From assembly GCA_008632985.1 (NCBI GenBank), contig QPGO01000004.1, positions 62,001 through 126,000 on the forward strand: DNA of 64,000 nucleotides. The letters run 5' to 3'. The position numbers and the translations under genes were made by a program. Below the pieces are notes generated by a model that saw nothing but the letters and a program-made list of their open reading frames with translations, did no database searches and had not been told where the DNA came from. Below, in pieces: positions 11,878-42,300 of the stretch. Source of the DNA: Psammoneis japonica. Taxonomy: Eukaryota. The stretch's first letter is position 1, and the number at the start of each line of letters is the position of its first letter.

Positions 11878-12559
11878 GGTGATTTAAAAAAAAGAGAGAG
11901 ACGGAGAAAGTCACAACCGAATCAATTGATACTTAAGAACGCCACTGGAGCACAGCAACCAACAACAATCGAAATCTCTGGACGATGGAAAATCAACAGG
12001 TGCAACAACGCATAAAGGATTAAGGCCGATGCATGTGAACTTGATCTAAAAAATGAAATAAAACGAAATTCCAAAATACCCGAATGGGCTCGCGCGGCCG
12101 GATCGATCGAGCGATCTGGATGGAGTGCGTGATGGCGACAGGCGCACACCATGGACCAGCGAACAGCAAACAGGCAGTGCACAATGCACAAACCATCCAG
12201 CACGACTGTCGCTGTTGCTGCTGTCGTTTCTACTTTTGAGATTGCTTTCTATTTACAATGGCGCCAAAGAGGATTACAGCAGTGGATGCGAGTGGTGAAG
12301 AGATCAAACAAGCAATGTCAAGCCAATGTTGAAGAGCTCCGCACGTGGATTTCACGGGCTTGGAGTTCGATGGTGCTTGATCAATGGTGACGGATGCAAA
12401 ATGTTGAGCTTCTAGTCACTTGAGGATGGTGGCAAGCACACATTTGATCCGCAACAGCAGAGAGACAGATTCAAGCAAGAATCTGGTGTTGACCGGCGTG
12501 TCAAATGGGAACCGGACGGGAGCCCATCGCTTCGCCCGAACTCCGCTGCCAGCCCAACA

Positions 12560-13830
12560 GCTTTGGTGGAGCTCATGATGAAGGAAATGCATCTTGCAAC
12601 CACAAAAGCTGACAGAGCAATGCCACAATGCTCACTGCCACATGTGGGAAATTTGGAAAAGGACAGATTGACAAAAGAGAATCGCTTTCAGGATTTTCAG
12701 GGACGTGCTGGCGAGGCAAGGGTGCTCACCAAAGAGCAGCAAAACAAACCATCTGTGACAGACAACGAGCATCAACTCATCACCTGCCTGATGCCATTTC
12801 TCGAAGATGTTGGCAAAGGCACAGCCAGGGACACCACTTTCAATTCAGAAAAGCACAAATGGATTGAGGCCAGTTCCGAAACCACCGTTTGCAACGAAAA
12901 GCCGGACTTGATTGTCTGTCACCCTGCCATCGCCAATCCAGACCACCGTTCAAGTGCAGGAAAGACACAAAGTTGAAAGAAATGCAAAAAAGCAGAGACA
13001 AATTTGGTGTCCTTTCCCAATGGAAACTTCTCATGATTTCATTGGTCTGACTTGTGAGGCCAAGCAACATGTCGGCGATGAAGGTTTGGCAAGGTGATCA
13101 ATTGTGGAAAAACACATTTGCTTCAGAAAACATGGTGCTGTGACAACAAGACTGCTCCTCTTTGACAGAAAAAAGTTCTGGCCAGTCAACACTGCAAAAG
13201 GAACAGTTTCAAGCATTCAGACCTGCAGGTGCACTGCAGAGGGATCCAAGACTTTGTGTTCTTGTGGGTTTTTGTTTGCCAACCCCCTTTGGCAAAAGTT
13301 TTGTGCAAGGCTTGCCAGTGTTTTGGCCTCAATGTTGGGACAGATTCCTTTTTGGTGCTGGTGCTGCATTTGGGTGTGCATTCCATGATGCACAGTGTGA
13401 GACCAATGGCAAGGAAATTGCTCTCAAAGTTGTGGTGAAGCAAGGAGGCAATGATGTCATGGAGTGACTGGAGTCCAAAAAAGAAAAAATGATTGCGGCA
13501 AAAGAAAAATGCCCAAGTCATGTTGTGGGTGTGGAGTGTGACAGATTCCAACTGTTCACAGATGGAGCTGTTTTGCTTCTGTTGAGTGTTGGAGAGCACT
13601 GTTCAAAGCTTGCGCTGCAAGACATTGTTGATTTTTGAATGCCCTGCACAGCAGTGGCATCTTGTGTGGCGTTGCATGCCTGGAAATGTCATGTGATTGA
13701 TTTTGCTGTCAGCTCTTTTGCACATGGGCAAATGAGCAGAGATTCCAAGCTAAACCTTCTGTTGACTTGCGTTGAGGAAAGTTCCAACTGTGCAGCATCG
13801 GCTGACCATGCAGCGTCGGCTGGCCAATGA
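12560..13830 (+). pseudogene. Decayed Crinkler-like PD-(D/E)xK nuclease + protein kinase gene
   Basis: Frameshifted pieces: KPDLIVCH...LTCEAK (REase-like), FGAGAAFGCAF (Gly loop), EIALKVVV, ALHSSGILCGVACLE (HGDxR-like catalytic loop) and VIDF. Confidence 0.65.
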
Positions 13831-16800
13831 TGCGTCAAATGACCACTGGTGATTTTTTTGCTCTGTCCCCATGTTTTACAACTGATTTCCTGCCTGCCTT
13901 GGATTGCATCTGAGAGGGGATTGCGTGACCCAGTGCAGTGCCATTTGATCAAAAAATCTCAGCCGTCACATCCAGACAAATGGTCCAGGGCTTCAATTCG
14001 CAACAGAGTGATCACACTGGTTGGGGCCAAGCAATCTTTTCAGACATTTTCTCAATTTTCAACATCAGCTGCTTGCCCACAAGAGCCCTGCGTGTGTTTC
14101 TGTGCACCCCCTCCTTGCACTGATGCCTCCTTTCTCAGATGGTCTTTTGCTGGTTCCCCCAAGGCCACCCTGGCTGTTTTTGCCTGTGGTGCACCCTTGT
14201 TTCAGAGTGACAACCAGCAATCATCATTGGAAAGCAATGGGTGTTGATGCCTTGTGGCCCTCATCATGCTCACTGCATTTTCTGGCAATTTCCCACCAGC
14301 TCTCCAAACTTTCCACACAGGACCTGGCACAAGCTCCACATGCTTCAGAAACAACTGCCAATGGCCACTTTGTCAACTCTTTGCAAACTGCTTCCATCCA
14401 TGCCTGTCACCTCTCAAGGAACTCTTTTTCTGCTGTTGGCCAACCAAGCTCTTCAACTTGTGCAGCAGAGAGTGCTGCCTCTGCAGTGGAGCTTGAGGGT
14501 GTGGCTGCACCTGAGTCAACTTTTGGCATTGCTGCTTGACAGTCATCTGTCTGCTGCACAGATCAGCATTTCTGCACAAGATTTGGCATCATTTCCATGT
14601 GTGAAAAACATTTCTTTCATGCCTTTCTTGTCACATTGTCAATGCTTGTCTCCACCATTTTGCACCTGTGCAAGTCTTGAACATCCCTTCTCTTGTTTGC
14701 TTGTTTGCTGGCTTGCTCATCTCTCTCACAGCTCCATGTGGTGAGCCATTTGCTGCTTTCATTCCAGCACTCAAACACACAAAGTCCAGTCTGTTTTTGG
14801 CAAAAACAAGACCTTTTCTTGGAAGCAGGAGCACTTCTCACTCAGATCTTGTGCTGCTTTTGCACCCTCATCTATGTGTGACCATCCTTTGCTGTTGCAG
14901 TGCAGGTGCTTTGCATCCAGCCCAAAAGAAATCAATGAAATTCCCCTCATGTTTTGCACTTCAGCCAGCTGTCTTTGGTGGGCATCACTGCAAGGTCACA
15001 CTGCAACTGGGTGAGGCCATGACCAGCAGCTGATCCCTTGCCCCTTCTGCCATGTCAGCTGGTGGTGTGCTGGAAGCATGGGTCAGCCTGTGCCAGACAT
15101 CCTGGGCAGTGTTGCAATGGCACTCAAGGTTGGTGGACATTTTTTTGTTTTTCATGCACATTTTCTCAAGATCAGCAGCCATGCATGTGTGTTTGTTCCA
15201 AGCAAGATGCAGCAGAGAAGATCATTTGCAGGATTGGCACCAACCCAGCAAGAAGGGTGCAACTGCATGACTCTTTTCAGTTTGCTCTGCAGTTTTTGAA
15301 GTGTGCTGAATGGTGTGAAAGCCAAGAGGTTGTTTTGTCTGGCTTGTCCAGACTTGGATGTGCCCAGTGACAGCAAGCTTTCTTCTGACCCCCCAGAGTC
15401 AAGATTCACACAAGCATGTGGCCAGCCATGACAAGCCAATGCCATGGCTTCCTTCCTCCACTCAAAACACTGGCTTTGCTGCACCAGATCCACTGGTCAG
15501 AAGAGTTTTTGATGTAACCTGTGTTGAAAGTTTTTGTGTCAGTCAACAAAAGATCTCATCCAGAAAATCCAGGCACAAGGGTGCCGTTGATGACCTGAAG
15601 AGCAAGCTTGATTGCACCAAAAAGACACGAGCAGAGCCAGAAGATGACAAAATTGTCTGGAAACTTGGTCCAACCAAGTGCATTTTTGCAGAGGTTTTGC
15701 AACTGCATTGAGCAAGCCATGGGTCAAGGGTGTTGAGTTGATTGGTGGCTGTGTTCAAGGCAGACTCAATGGAAAAGAGCTCAAGTCTTCTGGCAGAGGT
15801 GCGCCAGCCACATGGGTCCAGTGCATGAAGCCCCACCTGAGGTTGATGAAGATCTTGATCTTTTGGCTCATGAGAGAAAATGCAAGCCATGCTGATGAAG
15901 CAAAAGCAAAAGCTTGCTTTGCCAAGCTTTGCAGGTTTGGCAAGACTGATGTCAAAGAGTCTTGTCAGCACCAAAGGCATTTTGTGCATTTGAGTGCCCC
16001 CAAAAAGCAAAAAGTGGGGGTGCTGGCACACGCAAAAGTGCATTGTTTGCCATTTGATGCCAGCAGGTGAGCCAAAAATCTGGGTGAAAGTTGAGGCAGT
16101 GCAGTGCTTCCTTCAAGCTGCCAAGGTGTGCTTCACCCAGATTTGATCTGAACTGGCTCAACTTTGTCACACAGATCACCAACAACCTTGTCATGCAACA
16201 GTCCCAGCCATTTCTTGAATGAGCCTGCTTCCTTGTTGTCAGCTAGCGCCTTGGCTTTGTCTGCCTTCTTGTGGGTCAATTGAGTGCTGCAAAGAAGAAG
16301 GCCGAGGAACAAAAGTTGAAGGTCCAAGGGCAAAGCTGAGCATGTCAAAAAAGCACAAACTTCTGTTGCTTGTGGCTGCTCACAACCAAACAGCTGAGCA
16401 AAACCAACAGATGGCTGCAGGATTTGTTGTTGCTGTCACCACCATGGCAGAGAAAGAGTGGCAAGAAGTTGTGTGCTCAAATGTGGAAAATCAAGGAAGG
16501 AGGTTAATTGATGAGACCCCCCCATCTTGCAAACACATGCAACAGTCCAATTGGGTGGTGCCAGATTGGCTCTCAGCATCCTTGCGCAGACGGCATCAAA
16601 ATGGAGCCACACAGCCAATGGAAAAAAGGAAAAGACATCTCCAGCAAATGACATGTCCCTGATCAATTTTTGAGACCTGGCACCGGTTTGATGCAGCAAG
16701 CTCACCATGAGAAATTCTCCCAGACTTTTGGGATGCTTGCATGCAGGAGCATGAAATGGGGTGCAAGTGTGCATTGGGGGTTAGGATGGAAGGCACCAGT

Positions 16801-17424
16801 TTCCAGAAATCTTGCGACTCCTCGTGTTCAGCACCATTTCCAGCAAAGCAGTCTTGATTTTTTCAAAAAAGTGCTCAATGAGTTCCTTTCATGACCATCA
16901 TGAAGTGACAGCTTGAGCAAAATGCTTGCAACCTTGCAAGACATGCCACAGCTTTTATTTTCTACGTTGACCAATGTCATGACTGGTCTGTGCCTACAAC
17001 AGCACCGGTTCAATCAAAAACACTGCCTTTCAAGAAGTGTCAATGAAACTAAGTGCAACAAAGCTCCCCACAAGCATTTCCCAAAACCTGCTTGTTGACA
17101 TGCTCTGCATCTCACCCCACCTGACAAGAGTTGACGATCATGTTGCCATCATTCAAACACCAGGGTCATGGACTGAATGACAAATCTCTCAAACATCTGT
17201 CGAAGAGGAAGGGGCATGCCGAACCACATCGCCCATGGCCTCGCTCAAGAGACTCTGCCAAATGAAACAAACTTGGGCTCTCCACTTTTTATGAATTTGG
17301 ATCACATCATCCACAGAATGGTGCTGTTGGTCCTTGGGACTGAAACATTTTATTTTGTCAACACTGCGAGATGGTTTGCAAAGCTTTGGCAGCATGGAGC
17401 AGTGCTCATGCTGGGGTCAGTTCC

Positions 17425-18474
17425 TCACCCAGTGCCCGCAAGATGGGATGGATCCAGTCCAGAATTTCTGGCAACAAACAAGGGCTTGCAATCACCAAGG
17501 CTGTCCATGGTGCATTCAACAATCTTGCGGATCCAGAGCACCTGTGGGGTGGGTGGCTCTTCACTGTGGTTGAGATCGCGACCCTCCAGAAGGTTTTCTA
17601 GCATGCGCCATGTTTGAGGATTGTTCATGAAAAGTTTTGCTTGTTCTTCCCTGAGTTGGGGGCCACCAGCAGCATCCATCATGGCAGCTTCTAACCAATC
17701 AATTGCACCATCTTTATGAATCCAACTAGCACCCAGCTCACCCTGTTCTTTCTTGTTGAGCTCTTCTTGCACCACTTCCTGCATGTCACGAGCACATTGG
17801 CACAGCTTCTTGCACGGTCGTGGATTGAGCTTTGGGTCATTCTCAGCAATGCAAGCAGCCAAATCAGCCATCGTTTGAGCCATGCCATCTGCCATGCTCA
17901 TGCAGGTCGTCTTGGTCATTTCATTCTTGAACTTTCTCATGGCCTTGGTGATGTCTTTGTCAATCTTTTTCGATCCAAGTTGTTTGCAGTTCTTCTTGTG
18001 AACTTTCCAGTGAGCCTTCTGGCAATCAACACCACAATGGCAAGCCACCTGACAGCAAGAGCACTTGAAAAATTTTGTGACAGAAATTGTTGCTTGTCCA
18101 TCATTGTTGCCCTGTGGAGAGCAATGGTCGCAGTCTGGATTCCAGCATGCATTCTCACACGAGCGGTGCTTGTTCTGCGATTTGTCATCCAAGCCATTGT
18201 GCTCGTTCAGCGCAGCCACAAGCTCTTGCTTCTCCACCATCTCCTCTGTTCCAGCTCCAATGCCACGTTTGCAACAAGCTTGCCAAAGTCCCGGGTGCTG
18301 CATTGTTCCATGTTTGTGGTTGACATGAGCTGCGTCTGACTTGCTCAAAGTGCAGTGCATCGTGCATGTTGAATGTGGAAGCCGATGATGAAGATGGCAT
18401 TGCATCATTGCATGGTTGATGGTCTGATGGTGTTTTTTAATGGTTGGGGGAACCACCTGCTGCACTGGTGGCAC
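17425..18474 (-). pseudogene. Mutated MYND zinc-finger gene
   Basis: CWNPDC...FKCSCCQVACHCGVDCQKAHWKVHKKNC (~17985-18150) is the MYND pattern with Arg->Cys and Tyr->His at consensus positions. Confidence 0.75.
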
Positions 18475-18799
18475 GCGCGTGTGAGGAGTTCACGTGCAAC
18501 GTCGCCTGGTGGCACGGGGCGGGGAGGAGCAGACGCGGAGCAAGGGTGGAGCTGAATCATGCAGGTGGGAAAAGGGATGGATTTCAAATTAGGGTTGGAG
18601 AGTTGGGATTGTAGTTTGGTGGAGCAGTGGGTCCATTGGTCAGCAAGTGATTCAGTGATTGCAAGGCTCAGGCTTTGAAGACCCCACTGTGATGGAGTGG
18701 AAGCATGACTGTCGGTGTCAGTCATTGCGTGCGCCGTGTGGAAGCACTTGAAAGCATCTGTTGTTGTCCGATCCTCTGCACTGTGCAACTCACGCACAC

Positions 18800-20410
18800 A
18801 TGACAGATGCAATGAAGAACAAGCACTTTGCATGTCCAGCATCCATCAACAACAAGCAAATGTCAAAGCTTCTTGTGCACCATTGTGTCTTTTGTTTTTG
18901 CAGTTGCCCCATTGAAAAAAAAACTGGCAGTGAACAGTGCCTGCACTGAGCACATGTCTGACAACTGCCAAGCCTCAAGTGTGCATGTCCTCTTGTCATT
19001 GCACAAGAAACACCAGTTGCAGCAACGTTGCTGCAAATGATGTGTGGGAAGCAAGCACTGTGTTTGTGTGCACAAATTGTCCAATGCTCACACCAGCTTT
19101 GTCAGAACAGAAATGGAGCATTTGGTTGTCAGACAAATCATGAGCTGGTGGGGGCAGATGTCCCCACAAACTTCAAACTTTTTTGTGCTGGAAGCATGTC
19201 TTGAGAGACACAAATGGGCACAAATGATTGAAAGAGGCTGCACAATCTGTCACAACTGCAGCTGAGAAAGAGCTCAAGAGAGGTGGCACAGGTGCTCAGT
19301 GATGTTCAGCTCAAGCCTGTCCATGTGGTCAGGAACAGACTCACCCATGACTGCATTTTTGATGCACTTGTGAATCTTGTCGGGTTGGAGGCCACCACTG
19401 CACCAAGTCAAATCATTGTTTTGCAAGCTCTGGTGGGCTTTGCGTTGTCAACAATTGGAGCAACCAGCCAAGGCTGGGCCAAGTGCAATCAAAATCATTC
19501 CTGGCCTGCAAACATTGGTCAACAGTTTTTCCAACTGCTGCCAAGTGGGGCGCGCCATGTTGATCATCACTCCACTGTGGTTTTTGAAGAATGGTTCAAA
19601 TGTTCTTTTTTTGCAAACTTGCATGAACAAATGTGTCAAGAAAGGGTGCGTGGATCAATTTTGGACTGCATTCATCTGTTGTTGTCCCATCCAATGCTCT
19701 GCATTTTGTGCATGTCCATCAATGACAAGCAAGTGTCAAAGTTTGTTTGCCATCACATGCCCCTGTTGTTTGTGGGTGCCCCATTGTCGTCCAGCAATGA
19801 GCACATTGTTGGGGAGATGACTCCTCATGGATGAGCAAAATGGTGGTGAACAGCACCTGCACAATGCCTGACACAACAGCTGCTGAGTTTCAAATGCATG
19901 TCCTGTCATTGCATGAGAAATGACGTCATTGTCAAGAGCAACAAGTCAGCTGCAAATGTGGAAGCACTGTGTCCACACATGCAAATTGTCCAACACCCAC
20001 ACCAGCTTTGTCAGAACAGAAATGAAGCACATTGTGGTGATCAGACAAATCACACATGGGATGTTCCCATGAACTTTGTGGGCTTTTTCCAGAAGCACGT
20101 CAGCATGAGACAAAGACAGGCACAAATTGTTGAAAGAGGCCACACAATCTGTCACAACCACAGCTGAGAAAGGAGCTCAGTGGGGATGGCACAGGTGCTC
20201 AGTGATCATGGTTGGCTCAAGCCTGCCTGTGTGTGGTGGTCAGCAACAGACTTGTCCACAATCACCTTTTTGGTGCACTTGCAAATCTTGTGGGGTCAGC
20301 AGCCACTTCCGCACCAACCAAATCATTGTTGCAGGCCCTGGCAGGCTTTGGCTGTGTTCCCAGCGGTTGGAGAGCAACCAGCCTGGACAGTGCCAAGCAC
20401 AATCAAAATT
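18800..20410. repeat. Diverged tandem duplication, period ~900 bp
   Basis: cacaccagctttgtcagaacagaaatg at ~19089 and ~19998; gaaagaggc..cacaatctgtcacaac at ~19230 and ~20132; ggcacaggtgctcagtgat at ~19285 and ~20188. Confidence 0.85.
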
Positions 20411-21850
20411 GTTGTCCCTGTGAGATGCCACCACAGGCTGAAACTCCAAATGGAACAAAACAAAATCAGCATGCATCCCAAGTCAAACAATGTTGGCACA
20501 GAATGATGTTGTGCTGGTCATGTCATTGTGACAACAAAACATCAAGTGCACACCTTGTTTGCAGAGATGGAAAAAGATTTTACAGACACACTGCACAGTG
20601 GCCTTGCAGGGCAAACAGAGGGTGGCAGAGCAACCTCACACAGCAAGGCAAGGCAAGAAACAAGAGAGGCAATCAACAATGTGGGGTGTGCACCTTTGGC
20701 TGTGCCAACTTCATTGGAAGGAGAAACAGAACACAGGTGTGGACAAAGAAGTTGGCTTGGCAGCAGTGTTTGTGGCAGAAAAAAGTTGAAAGCAAGAGTG
20801 CAGGTTGGCAATGGCAAGCCTCCTTGTGCTCAAATTGTGCAAATTTGCACACAGGCTTTCAATGCTTGTGCACTGCAGGACAGTGCTAAAACAAGAAAGA
20901 TGGGGGGATTCCAGAGGACAGCCTTGCATGACAAACGCAGTTGAGGAGACACAAGAGTGCAGACAAAGGCAAGCAGGGAGGGAACAAGGTGAAACAGGCA
21001 GAAGCACAAACAATGGTGGACCGCAGAAAATGCAGATGAGATTAAAATCACATGCAGCTGCACTGCATGGCCTGCAAAACATTTGTCAGATGAAAAGCCA
21101 CAAGAAGCACAGGTGGTGTGTGCTGAGGTCAACAAGACAGTTGGTATCTGCAACAATGCAAAAGAAAACAAAAATCCTTTTCAAGTGCAAAAAATGTTTG
21201 TGTTTCAAGAATGCAACAAAGCATTGTGTGCATTGCAGGATGAACAAACTGTGCGACATCAAGCTGTCAATGCCGGTCCTCACATGATGTGCGCACATTG
21301 GCTTCTTGGTGCACTTTCAGATTTCCCACATGGCTTGTTCTTCTTTTTTTGCTGCCAGCACACTGTGGCTTGCTCACATGCAAATGAGCCAACAATGCCA
21401 TGTTCCAGATGTGGTGGTGAGTGGTGATGGAATTTGGGCTGTTGCCACTGTCACTGGAAGACGCTCAAGAGTGCAACACCTTGTTGGCAACAGCTTGGGA
21501 GAAGGACGAGCTCTGTTCTTGTTGCAAAGAATGTTGGTGTGACCTTTTGAGGACCACAATGTGTCGCCAGCTCTTTGATGCCAACAGGCTCCAAATTTGC
21601 CCATGCACTGACAAGCCTTTGCATTCTTTTTTTGTGCTGGCAGCCAGTGAGAGTCAGGTGCCAGGTTTTGCACTGTCTGCATGAGCCCAGCACGTCTGCA
21701 GATTTGTGTTCTTGCTGGATGCTTGAGAGCTGTCAAAAGAGACTGCATCATTTTAGAATGCCATCATTGCATTTTCAGTTTTTACAAAGTCAGAAGCTTT
21801 CCATGATCTGGAAGCTGCTCTTGTCAGTCTCAGTGTGGCACAAAAAGTCA

Positions 21851-22577
21851 GAAAATTCTCAAAGCCCTTCTTTTCAACCTCATCTTGAGCTCTCTTCTGC
21901 TTGTTGTGCCTCCTTGAGACATGGGCTCATGGTGTTTTTGATGACTTGGGGACCAGCATGAGAGACACAAATCAATGATGTGTGCAAGTGATCATGAAAG
22001 ACAGCACAGCTTCTGCCACACAAAACAGAGTTGCTCAAAACCCAGCGGGGTGCTGTCCAAGCAACTTTTGCATGAGAGCAAGAGCACAAGAGGATCTGAT
22101 GTTGTGAAATGACAAAAGTTTGAGGCAGACACATCTGCACTGCACTCACTTTCACCACCAGAAGATGCCATTGTTGTCATTCTGCAAGCGCGGTGAAAAA
22201 AATCTGAGCAGGAAAAATTCTCAAAGCCCTTCCTTTCAACATCATCTTGAGCTCTCTTCTGCTTTTGTTTTGCCTCCTTGAGACATGGGCTCATGGTGCT
22301 TTTGATGACTTGGGGCTGGCATTGGAGACACAAATCAATGATGTGTGTGAGTGATCATGAAAGATGACAAAACTGCCACCCAAAACAGAGTTGCTCAAAA
22401 CCCAGTGGGGTGCTGTGTCTGACTTCTTGCATGAGCGAGTGCACGAGCGAGGAGAGGAACTCTGATGTTGTTAAATGACAAAAGTTTGAGGCAGGCACAT
22501 CTGCATTGCACTTACTTTCACCACCAAAAGACGCCATTGTTGTCATTCTGCAAGTGCGGAGAAAAAAAACTGAGGCA
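21851..22577. repeat. Tandem duplication, two ~360-bp units (21851-22210, 22211-22577)
   Basis: Both units run aaaattctcaaagcccttc...gcctccttgagacatgggctcatggtg...caaaacagagttgctcaaaacccag...ccattgttgtcattctgcaag with high identity. Confidence 0.92.
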
Positions 22578-28914: not shown

Positions 28915-29856
28915 GGGAGATTTAGAGTCAGGTCCCGGAGCACGGCTCTCACATTTTATACTTTAGCGTGCAGTGGGCCTCGCCAAGGGGGTTACCATCA
29001 CCAACAGCACGAGAGAGCTGCTTATAGGCTATGACTTCTGCTGTTGGACGATCGTTGCTTAAAAGTACCATCACTTTGGTTTGAAACTAAGTCGATAAGG
29101 GACGGACTTTTGACCTTGCGACAAGTATGTAGACGTGTTAAAACCTTTAGTTTCAGGGATGGAAACATATAGCTTGATTCGTTCTAGGTACCTCTCACAG
29201 CTCTTGGGAACGTACAACGAGACTGCTTTTCGGAATCATGCCCTTGTCGTACGTGTGCAATTGTGTCGCCCAAACCCAATCACTAAGAAGAGTTCTAGAT
29301 CAGCTCTGTCAAACTTGCAATTTCATTCGCAAAATCGACAAAAGCACAGCTCAGAGAAACAAAAAGAGTGCAGAGAGTTGAGAAGCCTGCGCAAAATACA
29401 ATGCAGTGGCAATGCAACAGTCAACATACCGAATACTGACGTCTAGCTCCTCTCTACAGCCAGCTAGCCGCTACCAACTCTAACTCTTCGATCGAATACA
29501 TAGTCACGCTGACGACGCACTTGACGACCAAACTTAATCCCCTCTTGCCCGAACACCACCGACTATCAGGGGCGACGCAAGGAAATGAATATTTTTTTCT
29601 CTTTACCAATGCGAGGACCTAGCCAGCTTTGCCGTTTCCAAGAGATGCTTGGGAGGATGCGCCGTTTCCAAGAGCTGCCCAGCATTTTTGAGACCAATTT
29701 TTTGCAGATACACCAAAAAACTTATCAAGCATGACATCACTTGAGTTGTCCCTCCACGAATTCTGCTGTCCTTTGTCGTAGCCAGACCGCGAATAAGGTA
29801 GGATTGTTCGAACAGATTCTCCATCGCAAATGCCTTGGGCACCGTGCTGCCCTCCT

Positions 29857-30960
29857 TTAGCTGATACCCAGAGAGTTGTCGTTGTAGGTCGTCACCCCAA
29901 CAGGCAAGGATAACGTCGTAGAAAATAGACCGGAAATCGATTTCTTGGATCGCCGGAACGGTATCCCACTAACAAACTCTTCGACTAATTTACATTCAAA
30001 CTCCACCCCTTTGCTAAATGGTTCATTCCAAGAGACTTCACAATCGAAACCATGCAACGGAAGCACTTCGCAGAATGACTTGGTCAGACATCTTATCAGC
30101 AGAGTCACAACAAAAAGAGCTTCCCAACCATCTCCTGATTGTATCTTTTGCGTTCGAAAGCTCTCCAACTGTTCGCAGATAACTCCGAGACAGCGTCGCA
30201 CCGTTACAGGGAGAACTGGTAGTCTGGATAAAGAAAGAAGAAGTTGGGTCATATGATAAGGTATCCAAAGAGCGATCGGCGTCTTTTCAATAACATCGAC
30301 GTCCATTAATTCACGAAACATTTCAGGAACAAGAGCATAGTCCCCAGCTAACATCGTCATCAACAAAGTTTCAACTTTCTCAAGTGAAACACCTGTGTCA
30401 ACGAATTTCTGTATCGCTCCTTCGCGTCGCTGATGTGGAAAACTGTTTTACATTGCACCGTAATAGAGCAGGATTAATCCCAGGTACAGAGCCGAATGGG
30501 GGCTTAAAGAAGAAGGATAGCCAAGCAAACTCTTGGATCGGGAAAGATTTCGTTCAAGGGGAAGCCTCCTCGTTTTCACTTCTCTCACTTGGGGAGTGCA
30601 TGAAAGATGTAAGCGTATGGTTCACAGAAATCGCACGTGAGAAACGTAGCGAGATCCTCGCTCATGGCAGCCTCCAGCAAATTCAGCTCGTCAATTAGAA
30701 GAACGCACTGGACACTGCCCAACCAGTCTGTCACATCTTCTTTCTTGACAACATTAGACGCAGCAAAAAGGTTGAAACCCCCTGCGTCAGGCTTCCCTCC
30801 TAGAGAGAGAGCGCCGCGAATAGAATTCTGCGGCACAGGCAGGGCTTCCAAAGGACTGTGTTTTTCTCTCAAAGCGATGGCGGCGTCTGACCATTGACCC
30901 TGACAGAAATGATTGACGCATCAGTCTTGTTGTCCTTGTGGAGCGCCCAAGCAATCAAAC
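29857..30960 (-). pseudogene. Frameshifted, 5'-truncated Crinkler-like P-loop NTPase gene
   Basis: Pieces IAWALH...SIISVRVNGQTP, CVLLIDELN (Walker B-like), SPSER/EVKTRRLPL, SALYLGLI, WIPYHM and SGDGWEALF lie in different frames. No Walker A found; sequence switches to unrelated block-2 DNA near 30960. Confidence 0.6.
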
Positions 30961-33330
30961 TTGTCAAAAATCTTCTTTGAAATTGTTGGAAAGAGAGCCT
31001 TGCACTTTCAGGTGGAGCTCTTGTCAACATGGGCATGTTCACATTGCCACTCATGTGCATGCCTTGAGGGAACAGCAGCAGGTGGTCTGTGACGTGCAGC
31101 AGTGGTTGAGAGGGTGATTCAGCAATTTTGGCTTGTGTGCCTTGAACCACTTGTGTTGCCAACTGCATGGTGGGTGCTGAAGTTGTGGTGCGAACAACAA
31201 TGAGCATGGCACCTCTTTGCATCAGGGCACTCACACATGTGCTTTTCGGCAAGTTTTTTGTGTGTGAGAAATCATGGTTGACTTGAGGTTTTGATCAGTG
31301 CTGGAAAGCCAGCACATGAGTTCCATTCACAATCACTTCTGGCACACATTGACCTTGCTTGCTGCTGCAAATTGTGCTCTCTGGCATGATGTCTGCACAG
31401 TCCAAGTCAGTCATGTCAATGGCACACAAATTCTCTCTCGTCAGGAGTGCAGAAAGCAGCGCTCAATCCAGGGCAGGTCCTGAAAGACTGTTGAAGGCAC
31501 AGAAGAGCGTGCTTCTGGAAGGTTGTGACACAGAGTTGCAGGGAAAACCAGAGGGTGGTCTTCAGGTGGCCATGTCACAAACCCTGGCTCAGAGCAGCTC
31601 AGAAGGGACCCCAAGCTGGTGGAGAGCTGTCCACCACCCAACGGGACATTGCTGGCATGCACACAGTTTTGTTCCCCATTGACAACTCCACATTGGATTT
31701 GGCAACAGAGGTCTGGCCATGACATCACAGAGATCCTTGAAGAAGGGAGTCAAAGAATTCTTGTGCTTTCAAAATGCTGACACCCCAAACAATGAGAAGC
31801 AAAAAATCAGCTTTCAATCACTCGCTTTTTCTTCTCACATCAACAACAACAAAGTTGACAGTCAACTGTCATGATCGATCCCATCAGGCAACCAAAGAAC
31901 CACAATGACATGTTGCTGTGATGCTGCGACCCTTTCTTGTTGAAGCTGGCTTTGATGGCATCTTTGAGCCAAGCTTGGCATTCTTCTCTTCAGCTTTGGA
32001 CTTGGTGCTGGCATTGGCATCTTGCTGCACTGCTGAGCTGGCCCTGACTCAGTCTGTTGCAACAATGCAAGCCTCAAGATTGCCATGGTCAAGATCTCAG
32101 ATGGAGTGCTGAGTGCACTTTTTCTGTCTTTGTTTTTGGAATGAGCATGCCCCTTTGACCAATCTGATTGGAGGAGGGCACCCATGACTTGTTTTGGTCT
32201 TTCTGACTGTGTGGCTCATCAAACCTTGGTTTTAAACTGTTCTCACTCATCCAGCTCTGTTGGAGCAGGGACATTGATCACTGTGACTGGATCATTTTGC
32301 AGCTTGGAAAAGGTCCACTCTTTTTTTGCCCACCCACCACACCCAAGGACAAGCGCTCTTCTTGCTGCAATTGACCCAGGGAGTCACTGGAGCAAGAAGG
32401 TCAAGACAGGAATTCCACGTTTGCTCCTTTGAAGACCCTGGCTTTTATGAAGGGAAGCAGGATCTGGTGTTGTCTTCAACTTTGAGGCCAGCATTGTCTT
32501 GCTGTTTGTGACCAGTGCAGTCAAATGCTGGAGGTCACTCCCAATGGACTGCTTTTCAAAACACGCCCGAGGAGCACTGGTTTTTTCTTTTGGCAATGAG
32601 CCCTTGTGCTGCACACAGGACCCTTTGGAGGGTGGGTTTGGGACCCCTCCACCCCCTTGTGCAGAGTGGAGCTTGTGCACCAAAAGCTCTCCTCCATGAG
32701 ATTCCCAAGCACTCCAATGTCAAGTCACTTCTCAGCGGTTCTTGGCTGGCTGGGATGTCAAGGGCTCATGCCAGGGGCGGGACTTTGCGGAGTGGTGCCA
32801 GTTCGGGTTCGTGCAAATCTTCACAAAGATGCATGGCGGAAGCTGAACTCACTGCCATTTGCAACAAGCAACAAGATTGTCTTGCAAAGGATGGAGCAGA
32901 TCTCATGGATTCGGTGGAGGATCATTTGTCACATGGCACGTCTCAGATTGTGAATTGGGCGTCAATGATCAAGCCCCGCCTCAAAGCCAGCGCAAAGGAA
33001 GCAAAGCGTCTCACGCTTCACGGCACATGTTCCATTGCAAGCTGCTTCAGAAGGGCATCACCATCAGGTGATGCCCCAGCCGGCTAGCCCCTTTGTCCCT
33101 TCTGCCGCACCAGCTCAGTGTGCTGGAAGTGTGGGTTGGCCGGCGTCGGCACAGCTGACAATGGAGTGACAGCACTTAAAAATTAGATCTGTTTTTTTTT
33201 TTTTAGTGCCAATTCGGATCCTCCAATCTAGAGAGAGATCGGTGACCCCCGTCATAATGCTTCCAACCACTCATCACAAACAATGAGGATGACGGTTCAG
33301 TCAAGTTCAGTGTTGGGATGCTTCTCTGCT
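30825..33330. other. Hypermutated block 2 (TpA/CpG depleted)
   Basis: By eye no TA from ~30825 to ~32230; few survivors afterwards, mostly TTAA/TTAG/CTAG; Tyr-free overlapping ORFs. Confidence 0.9.
32820..33087 (+). mobile_element. Possible decayed C-terminus of a non-LTR retrotransposon ORF
   Basis: HLSHGTSQIVNWASMIKPRLKASAKEAKRLTLHGTCSIASCF resembles, from memory, the tail of diatom LINE-type RT ORFs (...GxRSIxSYF). No RT core recognised. Confidence 0.3.
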
Positions 33331-33521: not shown

Positions 33522-38136
<4,615 letters not shown>

Positions 38137-38389: not shown

Positions 38390-41300
38390 TCTTAGGGCCC
38401 CGCCGGTCTTTTGGCCAAGTTGTCACGCGCCGCTAGCTCGTCGGTGGCCAGCGTGCTAGAAAGTGGCCCCCCACCTGACAGTGTTGGATGATGGGGTCCT
38501 CCAAGGACGCTTCCCATTGCGCTTGCATCTGGGTCTAGCGTTGAGCGATTCAAAATGCGCCTTGGCTCTGTGGACAAGCCTGTCAGCGCAGTGAAGAACG
38601 CTGAGAGCGGCCGGATTTGCCGGGCTGGCAGATCTCACCCCCACGAGAGGTCGTGCAATGGCAGCTGCTCTCCATGACCTTCGCGCTTCGACTGCTCTTC
38701 TCTGGGAGACCGATTGAAGTGAACACATGGAGGACTCTCTCGTGGAAACTGTCACTTGTGGCTGGGACCACCTGGTCCATTAATTCCTCCTCCTCCACTG
38801 TCACGCCCCCTCCGGCCACCTTTCCAATGTGAGATTCATTGACAACAGCAGTGCCCTGTCCTCCAGCCTGGTGAAGCTGCTGTTCAATCTGAGCAAGCAT
38901 TTTGAGCTGCCGAGCTGTGGCTTCAACATGGTGTTGACATTTGCCAGATGTTGCCACCTTCTCTTGGTTCCAAAAGAGAACACAATGCCAAGAATGCCGC
39001 CACACACCACCAGCAGATTCCTGTTGCCAAGACCTGCCAAAAACAAGCTGGCCTTTTCTTTCACAACCCACCAACTGGCCAGGTGGAGTGTTGAAGAGCA
39101 CTGTCCATGGCAATGTGCAATGGCTCTAGAGGCAAAAACTCCAGCACAAACAGCTGCTTCAGCACCACACACCAGAGAACTTTGCAGAAAAGCTTTCTGC
39201 ACAAGATCCCTCAAAAAAGCCAACAGCGCTGCCTTCAAGCTTCTTCCCAAGACAAAGTCCCTTTCTTGTTGTCACTCTCGACAGATCCACATGAACCCAG
39301 TTGTCTCTGCAGTCAAAGTTGTTGAGAAAACCAGGCTCACAATTGTCTCCCCACCCCCCACCCCCCCCCCCTGCTGGAGCTTGTGGTGCACAGTCATTGT
39401 GTTGTTGCACAAAACTGGGAAATGGGTCATCTGCATCCTCCAACTGATTCCAGGAATTCTCTTGTGAATGAAACCCATTGCACAGCAACAGGAAAGTTGA
39501 CAGTGCATGACTGAATGTGAGACAAGCCTTGTGCTCATGATGAGATGCCTGAAGACAATGGACTCAACTTGTGAAACAGAGGCTGACCTCACCCAACAAC
39601 CATCAATCCTGACCTTGTCAACTCCAAATCATCCAAAAAACACCTTCTGACAGCTCTGATCCCTCAAACAAGCCAACAGTGTTGCTGGCCTCCTTCTTCT
39701 CCACTCTCTCATTGAGGCTCATTGTCAGAGAAGGTGACGACCATGGGAAAGCTTGAGAAGTGGGTCCACATGCCTGTTGATTCATTCCCAGCTTGCTTGA
39801 TGTGAACATCTTGAAAGGCTGCAAACAAAATGTCATTGGATGTCTGATCTTGAAAATCTGCATGCTTGCACCTGATGTTCTGCTTTTTTCCATTTGAGGT
39901 TGCTTGCTTGGAGCAGGACAAGGCCAAGGCCAGTGGGTGGCTGTGGGGGTGGGGGGGTGGAGGAGGTGGCTGTGCAAGAGATTTTGAGTTGTTCCTTCTG
40001 TGGCACCTTCTTCTTGAAAATGCCATCATTGACAGCATTCCTTTCAAGATTGGCGGCAACAGCACAGGCTGCATTTCTTGGGATGTCACTTTCCAGTTTT
40101 GCCAGGCCCAGGTGCAACCACATGCTCATTGATTTCCTTTGCATCATCTGTGGTCAACTCTTGAATTGTTCAAAAGCATGAAAGAATCTCACCCTGCACT
40201 GCTGGATCATCTTTAAATCAGTGGTTTCCTCTGAGTTTGACGAAACAGCTCAGCTGTTCTTCATGCTGCCAGCCATTGTTCAAAGTCTTTGTGGATGAAC
40301 AACAGATGATGATTGATGCTCTTTTGGATCAGCGGCATTGACTGTTTCATCTCAAATGCATGTTCATGAAGACAATGAGACACAGCCGTTCAGTGAAGCA
40401 TCCAATTCATTTGAGGTGAGACTAAAATTTGAAGCAACGGAGGCCCCACACATTTGATTTCAGTTCACTTTAAGCACACAGTTATGAAGAGCCCACAAAG
40501 AATGGAGGGGAACAGCAGGAGGAGGCACAGTGGCAGCTGCAGTGGTGGCAGAGTGGAGCGGGGTAAAAATGGTGGACGCAGGGCACGTTTGGTTGAAGGG
40601 ACAGGGGACGTGGGGGCAGGGAAAGTGGAGGCAAATCAAAGGGCATGCACAGAGAGATGGAGGACCACATTGCAGCTGAGGGCCTGAAGAGCCCATTGGG
40701 AGGGAGAGGCAGTGCGGTGAGCACTGCCAAAGCAGTTGGAGGACAGGTGTTGCTGCGCAGAGTCAGCTGATGGAAGAAGGGCAGATGGAGAGGATGAGGC
40801 ACAGAGGAAGGCGGAGCATGAGGCATCAGAGTGTCAGGAGTCAGAGGGAGAAGACCAGGGAGGCTTGGATTGAGATCAGCTGGAAGAGAATGTAGAGCCA
40901 AAGAGAAGCCGAATGGGCAAAGCATCCAAGGCCACCCAGGTGATCAACGGTGCAAGGGAGAAGGAAGACGCCGTCGGTGTTGAGCAAAGCAACAACAACG
41001 GAACCATCAGCAGTGGGGGTGGAAGGGCCAAGAAACTTCAGCCTCATGCTTGCATGGTGTGCCTCAGTTAACTTGGGGGAAGAGGGAGCAGGCAGACCGG
41101 GGGGGGGGGGGGAGAAGGAGCTTGGGGCACGTTGACGTCGGCTGGAATGCAGTGATGACAGGAAGGGGCCAAAAGCAAGGCAGGGGGGGGGGACAGAAAT
41201 GCCAACATCGGCAGGGCAAAGGAGTGGTCAAGCAGGGAGCAGGTTGAGGGGTTCAAGGTGAACATCCTTGGAGTGGCGACATCGCGTTTGTTTGCACGTG

Positions 41301-42300
41301 CTCAGCTCGTCACGAGCTTTTGATCGACACATGGGTCATGGGGTCTGTGAGGTCATCAGAAAAAAACCATTCTCAACCATTGACAGACTGTCGGCACCGG
41401 TTGGTCTGTCTGCCACATCTCTTGTCTTCTCTTTGATGCCTTTTTCTGATTTCTGACATGCACTTTCTGTTTCTTCACTTTGTTTCCCCCCCAAAGATTG
41501 GAGCCACCATGTCGAAGCATTCCTCCTTTCTGTCGTTCTCCCCCACTCCTCTTGTTTGGGAGGTCATCATTGTCATGATGATGTGAGTGCATGCCCCTGT
41601 GAGCAGGGGCAGAAGGTTTCGATGCTTGTTGTGGAATTCCTCTTGTTCAAGGTGTCCGAGTCAGAAGATTTTGTTCTGACTGTGATGCAAGTGGCTGCCT
41701 GCAGTCAGAGACTCAAAGATCTGTCTGAAGACACCTTTTGTGCTGATCTCTCTCCTGAGTCAAACACGTGTTCTGGTTGCAGTGGGATGAAGTTTGGAGC
41801 ATGCAATTCGTGCTGTTGCAGCTGTGCCCGAGAACGAGGAAACGGCGGTCATCGAAACTGCAAAGAGTTGCTCTCACATTTTCAGCAGGTCACTGGAGAT
41901 GAAATCCCTCCCTGTGCAGTGGCCTCTGATTGTCCCATTTCGTGCCCTCCAGCTGTTCTTGCTCTTCAGGAAGCTGCGGAGGCATTTGTTGTTGGACCCT
42001 TTGAGGATGCTGGCATTTCCACAGGCCAGAGCTGTCTCGATGCCATTGGGACTTTGTTGCTTGGCTTGTTTGGTTGTGAAGGTCCCCACTCGAGGACATC
42101 ACAGGTGGCGAGTTCCCATGAGATTTGTTTCTGAGTGAGAGAAGAAGCCAGGAGATGTGGGGCTTGTTTGCTGTTGGCAATCAGTTTGACATTGGCAGTG
42201 TTTGCATGTGTCAGCAGTCAGCAGTCCACTTCTTCTTGCCCTTGCGTGGCGTGTTTACCGCACGTCCATGCTCCGCACAAATCACATTTTTATTCGCCAC
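38390..42300. other. Hypermutated block 3 (TpA/CpG depleted), probable decayed repeat or transposon
   Basis: TA very rare and mostly in CTAG/TTAA; Tyr-free overlapping ORFs; G/C homopolymers at ~39350-39371, ~39944-39957 and ~41099-41112. Confidence 0.88.
41952..42008 (+). pseudogene. Histone H3-like fragment (alpha-2 helix)
   Basis: AVLALQEAAEAFVVGPFED versus H3 AV(M/L)ALQEA(S/A)EAYLVGLFED. Confidence 0.65.

Follow-up and report, generated by a model that had tools for sequence, protein, structure and literature searches.

The window analysed here is a stretch of 64,000 nucleotides of contig QPGO01000004.1 from the diatom Psammoneis japonica, and the best named homologues of one of its genes are diatom sequences (Bacillariaceae sp., Cylindrotheca, Grammatophora, Nitzschia). 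Its normal DNA holds 39 TA and 59 CG dinucleotides per kb, as compared with 2.6 TA and 13.9 CG per kb in three blocks taken together, in which TG and CA are each raised by 35-40 per kb. The blocks and the features within them are the following.

12276..22472, no strand: block 1, TA-erased and CG-depleted, delimited by changepoints and profile
12258..13845 (end approximate), plus strand: broken copy of a 526-aa kinase-type gene, with an intact paralog on contig C38 (L002)
12420..13100, no strand: flagged island, TA gone and CG partly kept, in the outer part of block 1 and the front half of the broken kinase-type copy
17425..18489, minus strand: 354-aa open frame with a MYND finger and zero tyrosines, containing the island 17800-18430
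18430..18720, no strand: short high-copy repeat adjoining the MYND frame, with at least 39 other matches among those listed
30822..33085, no strand: block 2, its right edge being the island 32760-33070, which overlaps a multi-copy repeat (about 32808-33201)
38537..42256, no strand: block 3, from changepoints, its left edge being the island 38540-38770
39229-40408 and 40469-41271: repeats within block 3

The second of the repeats in block 3 (40469-41271) is related to a young LINE family and is itself old. Between blocks 2 and 3, at 33693-37890, lies a multi-exon gene whose motifs suggest a putative beta-galactosidase; short-read run X2 skips GT..AG introns in it at 35381-35475, 35551-35627 and 36296-36394. 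At 33682-33718 a contig of run X1 is without 35 bases found in the window, an allele or assembly difference. At 95% likeness, blocks 2 and 3 are without contigs from run X2 and block 1 is almost without them, and this missing cover is not taken as silence. Separately assembled short-read contigs match the letters of the window over 29000-32909 with a single difference and over 16428-17559 with none. An assembly artefact was therefore rejected as the source of the blocks; the short reads possibly come from the same sample, so that the agreement excludes artefact only.

Four islands in these blocks had been singled out in a first-pass annotation as rich in CG while already free of TA, and this proved correct. 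Not a single TA is found in 12420-13100, 17800-18430, 32760-33070 or 38540-38770, where 26.8, 24.9, 12.3 and 9.1 would be expected from the non-block background of the window (39.4 TA/kb); the Poisson P values for the individual islands range from 2e-12 to 1e-4, for coordinates picked post hoc from the data. The same islands hold 22, 16, 13 and 14 CGs, or 55%, 43%, 71% and 103% of background. The description of CG as still frequent is thus apt in relation to the block cores, and less so for the first two islands, in which CG is already about halved. Searches of the assembly, which may be incomplete and therefore yields lower bounds, found no copy of 38540-38770 or of 16400-18430. Likewise, the MYND frame has no close copy in the assembly: the DNA search matches only 18430-18720, and the protein search gave nothing beyond short matches at 31-58%.

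The island 12420-13100 can be read against the intact paralog of the kinase-type gene, which has a complete ORF with a Pfam Pkinase match and whose letters are borne, at the places checked, by a contig of the intron-skipping run X2. The broken copy and the paralog share 82% DNA identity over 12212-14334; the island protein is 76% identical to that of the paralog, with paralog tyrosines appearing as histidine or cysteine. None of the 17 paralog TA sites in the island is kept, seven having become CA, seven TG, three something else and none CG, while 14 of 39 paralog CG sites survive (Fisher P 0.004 for 0/14 TA kept vs 14/35 CG kept). TA loss begins abruptly at about 12280 and takes every TA from there to 13600; CG retention drops inward from 8/11 to 0/7 across 800 bp of the copy. 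In the outermost 200 bp of the paralog alignment 4 of 8 TA are kept, where the model predicts the survival of 0.2. Selection preserving CG in a coding frame was rejected for 12420-13100, the copy being frameshifted and CG occurring at all codon positions. When the intact paralog was used in a metagenome scan, 47 candidates yielded 4 loci, none of them TA-erased, too few and too short to speak for other diatoms.

Further evidence comes from a 6.2 kb LINE family, of which 36 copies were taken from 167 candidates; 17 of these, at least 95% like the reference and covering at least 40 TA columns, form a young set. Rates were drawn from three-state columns and copy pairs, because columns with a mutated majority of copies confound majority-letter polarisation and also lead strict singletons to undercount TA. 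In the young copies 1200 of 2020 TA site-copies are converted (59%) as against 310 of 4031 CG site-copies (7.7%), a rate ratio of about 11, although the copies share ancestry, so that sites are counted non-independently and P values err on the optimistic side. Across ten disjoint copy pairs the ratio is 2.5-9.9 when double hits are ignored and 4-21 when TG/CA opposites are counted as former TA. The latter count is fair because other copies show TA at 26 of the 50 TG/CA opposites classed in one pair, nothing but TG or CA at 24, and CG at none. The claim that TA loss is the faster and more complete of the two is therefore upheld, at about 11 times per site and 2.5-21 across the pairs. Relative to non-YpR sites in the ten pairs, the TA rate is raised 24-416 fold and the CG rate 5-43 fold, the CG>TG/CA excess being what decay of 5mC at CpG requires. 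In one older copy pair TA loss (about 0.16-0.23) and CG loss (0.17) are similar, few TA being left in that pair. Outside TA and CG sites, transitions exceed transversions about 3- to 27-fold or more in LINE and Gypsy pairs.

A Gypsy element with LTRs 94.6% alike tells the same story, holding 82 TA and 589 CG in 8.8 kb (about 9 TA/kb and 67 CG/kb) and encoding very little tyrosine. Both LINE and Gypsy elements have RT domain matches, and the effect on them is damaging: the LINE RT motif, found in 25 of the 36 copies, some of which share ancestry, has kept its Y in 13 and lost it in 12, where C (10 copies) or H (2 copies) stands instead.

The spectrum of TA loss is narrow: it consists of T>C / A>G changes confined to TpA, yielding TG and CA. 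Among LINE copies the A is converted in 0.44 of TAC and 0.41 of TAT sites vs 0.17 of TAA and TAG sites, which is 2.5 times as often. In 262 kb of block cores ATAT is left at 0, ATAC at 0.003 and GTAC at 0.007 of background, and TTAA at 0.53. The rule of the TA mutator is that RTAY goes fastest and TTAA is resistant. CG survival in the same cores varies by context from 0.09 to 0.37 only; GCGC stands at 0.37 and GCGG/CCGC at 0.26, vs 0.09 for TCGA. In 13 copies neighbouring converted sites give the same product at a frequency of 0.45-0.59, vs 0.53-0.54 expected, so that products are not strand-coordinated; the change therefore probably took place on both strands of chromosomal DNA, as opposed to a single sweep along a single-stranded intermediate. 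In TA columns of the LINE family (L110-L126), CA is about 1.8 times as frequent as TG in the reference orientation, meaning more A>G on the coding strand, a bias that may reflect site context.

It had also been proposed that erasure of TA may itself create CG by way of CA or TG, and this was not borne out. As an explanation for the CG of the islands we give it almost no credence. Change of TA to TG or CA is one change, and CG requires a second one at a site that is no longer TA. TA stands opposite CG at 1 of 986 sites in copy pairs, TA sites of other copies read CG in the window in 0 of 182 cases, and 0 of 315 window CGs lie opposite TA. Of the 21 aligned CGs in the kinase island, 14 are opposite a paralog CG and none is opposite a paralog TA. 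The cores are enriched about 1.6-fold in TG and CA, which may supply part of the low CG floor by mutating to CG at the ordinary T>C rate, and opposite 154 of the 315 window CGs another copy has TG or CA, pairings that are not polarisable from pairs alone. Yet TG>CG occurs 3.5 times per 1000 site-copies vs 3.8-4.0 for T>C before C or T, and the making of CG from TA, as a direct or accelerated route, is refuted.

The two losses were also compared at the edges of TA-poor and CG-poor DNA. Each of the six block edges of the window has its best CG changepoint farther inward than its TA changepoint, the distances being 672, 36, 123, 307, 277 and 11 bp, so that two of the six edges are effectively common to both. 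Of 36 usable edges in 464 kb of the same contig (48 examined, 12 without a CG drop), 27 had the CG edge on the inner side of the TA edge, as had 19 of 24 in a held-out 400 kb from four other contigs (34 examined, 10 without); together this makes 46 of 60, 22 of the 82 examined having been left out for lack of an inner CG drop. Median offsets are 85 bp and 121 bp respectively, and some edges are offset by 500-1160 bp. A shared sharp edge would give 54% inside and a 5 bp offset, from which the observations differ at P 3e-4. This boundary profile, which the first-pass annotation had called for, did not find TA and CG changing at the same positions with the same slope.

When each mark was segmented alone, 138 kb of the same-contig sample was depleted of both dinucleotides, 64 kb of TA alone and 1.3 kb of CG alone; the figures for the other four contigs are 124, 99 and 0.4 kb, giving 262, 162 and 1.7 kb in 864 kb. 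In 1-kb windows, 121 of 859 have TA below 25% and CG at 50% or more, and none has CG below 50% and TA at 75% or more. TA loss had been called decoupled from CG loss, which holds in that it is a separate, faster process, but CG loss without TA loss is confined to the said 1.7 kb. The further suggestion that TA loss spreads further is right insofar as the CG edge usually lies inside. Nevertheless, the two losses fade together across the first 300-500 bp of the LINE: in its first 300 bp the converted fractions are 0.07-0.14 for TA and 0.00-0.02 for CG, as compared with mostly 0.5-0.75 and 0.06-0.14 in the interior. A simulation with one shared ramp of 200-400 bp and an 11-fold rate ratio gave median offsets of 81-142 bp. 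Flanks of 17 young insertions keep 28-39 TA/kb in their first 700 bp vs 39 in background, and in the 17 of 21 flanks that were normal DNA there is no clear TA loss, a small drop being still possible. The wider reach of TA loss thus follows mostly from the rate difference on a shared ramp.

We read this as two chemistries and two clocks within one target zone. A fast mutator turning TA into TG or CA would have finished its work in the islands, where a roughly ten times slower decay of CG into TG or CA is unfinished, both acting in one shared zone; the mutator would likely be a TpA adenine deaminase working in silent-marked DNA. We assign this explanation a probability of about 0.65. Its kinetic part we consider highly probable, and the deaminase chemistry, with less assurance, probable. 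TA sites are converted on both strands after insertion of an element, the CG-poor zone is nested in the TA-poor zone, and surviving CG is inherited rather than made from TA. Because survival falls exponentially with dose, young or zone-edge DNA is without TA and still holds half or more of its CG. The target zone may be methylated silent chromatin, CG loss may reflect deamination of 5mC, and the TA change may be an A-to-I deamination, with I read as G at replication, arriving episodically in patches that reach about 300 bp. Its role could be genome defence, with tyrosine codons turned into those for histidine or cysteine and the catalytic-motif tyrosine of reverse transcriptases removed. A single dose is only an approximation. 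TA and CG loss correlate with rho 0.54 over 34 LINE copies and with rho 0.25 among young ones (n=17, P 0.34); TA loss is patchy within copies, on a scale reaching about 300 bp, and overdispersed between copies that share ancestry (chi2 74, df 16, among young copies), unlike CG loss (chi2 22, df 16). Rate ratios extend from 2.5 to 21.

This looseness would be expected if two independently aimed systems were at work, namely a TA mutator with its own wider zone and CG methylation over part of it. The 162 kb of TA-only DNA and the edges that lie 500-1160 bp apart fit such an arrangement, as do the hot regions of the alga Bigelowiella natans, where 230 of 231 mutations were at TpA according to the accessible part of a preprint (bioRxiv 10.64898/2026.01.13.699255). 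Nonetheless, almost no CG-only DNA exists, and most of the TA-only blocks examined on contig C5 are young elements. TA loss and CG loss taper off at the same ends of elements, a single ramp suffices to yield the median offset, and the flanks of young insertions stay near background; we therefore judge two systems unlikely. Slightly more doubtful still is an account with the same kinetics and another chemistry, in which a modified thymine (in RTA) or modified adenine (6mA) mispairs and gives T>C / A>G without an adenine deaminase. The palindromic site conceals the strand, so that sequence alone gives no distinction between A>G and T>C, the neighbour rule fits TAY or RTA equally, and no unusual deaminase was found by PF00383, PF14437 or PF02137. 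Against this, a pure transition is most simply reached by A-to-I deamination, and we know of no candidate modifier for this TA site. A TET/JBP search (PF12851) had no match; its controls had none either, hence it says nothing.

The remaining alternative, that TA loss is a by-product of 5mC decay in which repair of T:G mismatches recruits an error-prone polymerase that mutates nearby TA, we regard as very improbable. It would account for the patches, for the sharing of one zone and both strands, and for the slight rise of TA conversion near mutated CG in LINE copies (+0.04 +/- 0.01). Polymerases of the eta type make A>G changes at WA, but AA>AG shows no increase (at 3.8 per 1000 site-copies, vs 4.0 and 3.5 for other T>C), and its absence by itself already largely excludes this route. 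In addition, transversions are near zero, and in DNA whose CG is nearly untouched, conversions at TA are more numerous than those at CG. With its own neighbour rule, its T>C / A>G spectrum and a variability between copies greater than that of CG loss, TA erasure is no simple by-product of CG decay, in agreement with the first-pass annotation.

The genome contains genes for a DNA methyltransferase and for ADAT2-like, TadA-like and ADAT1/ADAR-family deaminases. Searches with PF00383, PF14437 and PF02137 returned ordinary-looking deaminase genes of housekeeping type, and to our knowledge an ADAT2-like gene is expected in any eukaryote. A natural ADAT2 with DNA activity prefers GAA and not TA, going by the accessible text of that report (PMC10354150). 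Two separate ADAT1/ADAR-family (PF02137) genes, L152 on contig C40 and L154 on C79, were noted, and one of them could be a candidate editor. The C5-methyltransferase family has 27 matches in the genome, and on contigs C297 and C10 (L098, L099, L102, L103) such matches are clustered, several of them with stops; these are possibly element-borne copies.

The closest known system is that of B. natans, in which TpA hypermutation strikes integrated NCLDV and virophage DNA and was measured de novo in mutation accumulation lines at two viral inserts, with ADAT2 as the proposed enzyme (Mettrop et al., bioRxiv 10.64898/2026.01.13.699255; in part). From what is accessible of that study, both systems show TpA>TpG/CpA on both strands, locally and far above background, and both target foreign or repeated DNA, can reach single-copy DNA, and act unevenly between lines (there) or copies (here). 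The single-copy target here is the MYND frame, for which no close copy was found in the assembly, and the mobile targets are LINE and Gypsy elements. The differences are several: our organism is a diatom (Stramenopiles) and B. natans belongs to Rhizaria; LINE and LTR elements and gene copies are hit here, as opposed to integrated viral DNA; the process is near saturation over 49% of the 864 kb sampled; it is paired with CG decay in the same zone and follows the RTAY/TTAA neighbour rule; and the rate is inferred from copies, where the preprint reports it from mutation accumulation lines. The words 'CpG', 'diatom' and 'flanking' do not occur in the preprint's main text as far as accessible (bioRxiv 10.64898/2026.01.13.699255).

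Other systems share some of these traits. Like RIP of ascomycetes, the process described here hypermutates repeats in place by transitions at a dinucleotide, affects both strands and likely serves genome defence. RIP changes C to T, typically making TpA from CpA, and its direction is thus opposite to ours, in which TpA is destroyed and CpA raised; furthermore, RIP needs homology, whereas here a stretch is erased for which no close copy was found in the possibly incomplete assembly. Editing of retroelement intermediates by APOBEC3 or ADAR leaves one-strand runs. It resembles our case in its deamination-type transitions in retroelements with a neighbour preference and differs in that our products are not strand-coordinated and non-retro gene copies are affected too. 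The C>T nature of RIP is also stated in the accessible part of the B. natans preprint (bioRxiv 10.64898/2026.01.13.699255). In diatoms, DNMT5-dependent CG methylation of transposons has been described (PMC9998398, in part); together with 5mC deamination it fits the CG>TG/CA component, confined to repeats, and the TA change is outside its reach. The accessible text of that paper mentions neither deamination nor dinucleotide depletion (PMC9998398). Mutation accumulation in P. tricornutum has a GC>AT bias, and 'TpA' does not occur in the part of the report accessible (PMC6604790). A literature search, with matches judged mostly by title or the start of the abstract and subscription papers largely outside its scope, gave no diatom report of TA erasure.

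The TA/CG pattern is real, and it is a variant of a barely known process. In the literature as covered by that search, a targeted A:T-to-G:C chromosomal mutator was found only in one 2026 preprint, at two viral inserts of a rhizarian alga; here about half of the diatom DNA sampled is covered by the mutator, which is measurable against a built-in slower clock. The TA-to-CG ratio orders repeats by age and traces old silent-chromatin edges from the letters alone, and the neighbour rule is a fingerprint for locating the enzyme. In such genomes transposon ages and gene models are distorted, as frames stay open yet lose tyrosine. Diatom CG methyltransferase knockouts exist, according to the accessible text of the methylation paper (PMC9998398), and it can therefore be tested whether methylation recruits the mutator. 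With these considerations in mind, one may tentatively speculate, at odds somewhat below even, on an adenine-editing defence of diatoms that mirrors RIP. An A-to-I DNA deaminase would be recruited to CG-methylated chromatin and edit RTAY sites of both strands in patches no longer than about 300 bp, stripping tyrosine from transposon proteins within a few percent of divergence and leaving about half of the genome rewritten; Bigelowiella would possess the same system, which would then be old within SAR. If so, this defence would supply a natural adenine editor of double-stranded DNA.

Two further observations concern TA-poor DNA elsewhere in the assembly. At G000:C5:151158-157269 (L051) there is a TA-poor inverted duplication of 6.1 kb with arms 93% alike, whose differences are mostly at TA and CG. 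On contig C38 (L119:4337-6216) an insert of 1.9 kb whose TA content is normal (33-54 per kb) lies within a TA-poor element and is missing from the sister copy on C5; it is likely an insertion too recent for erasure.
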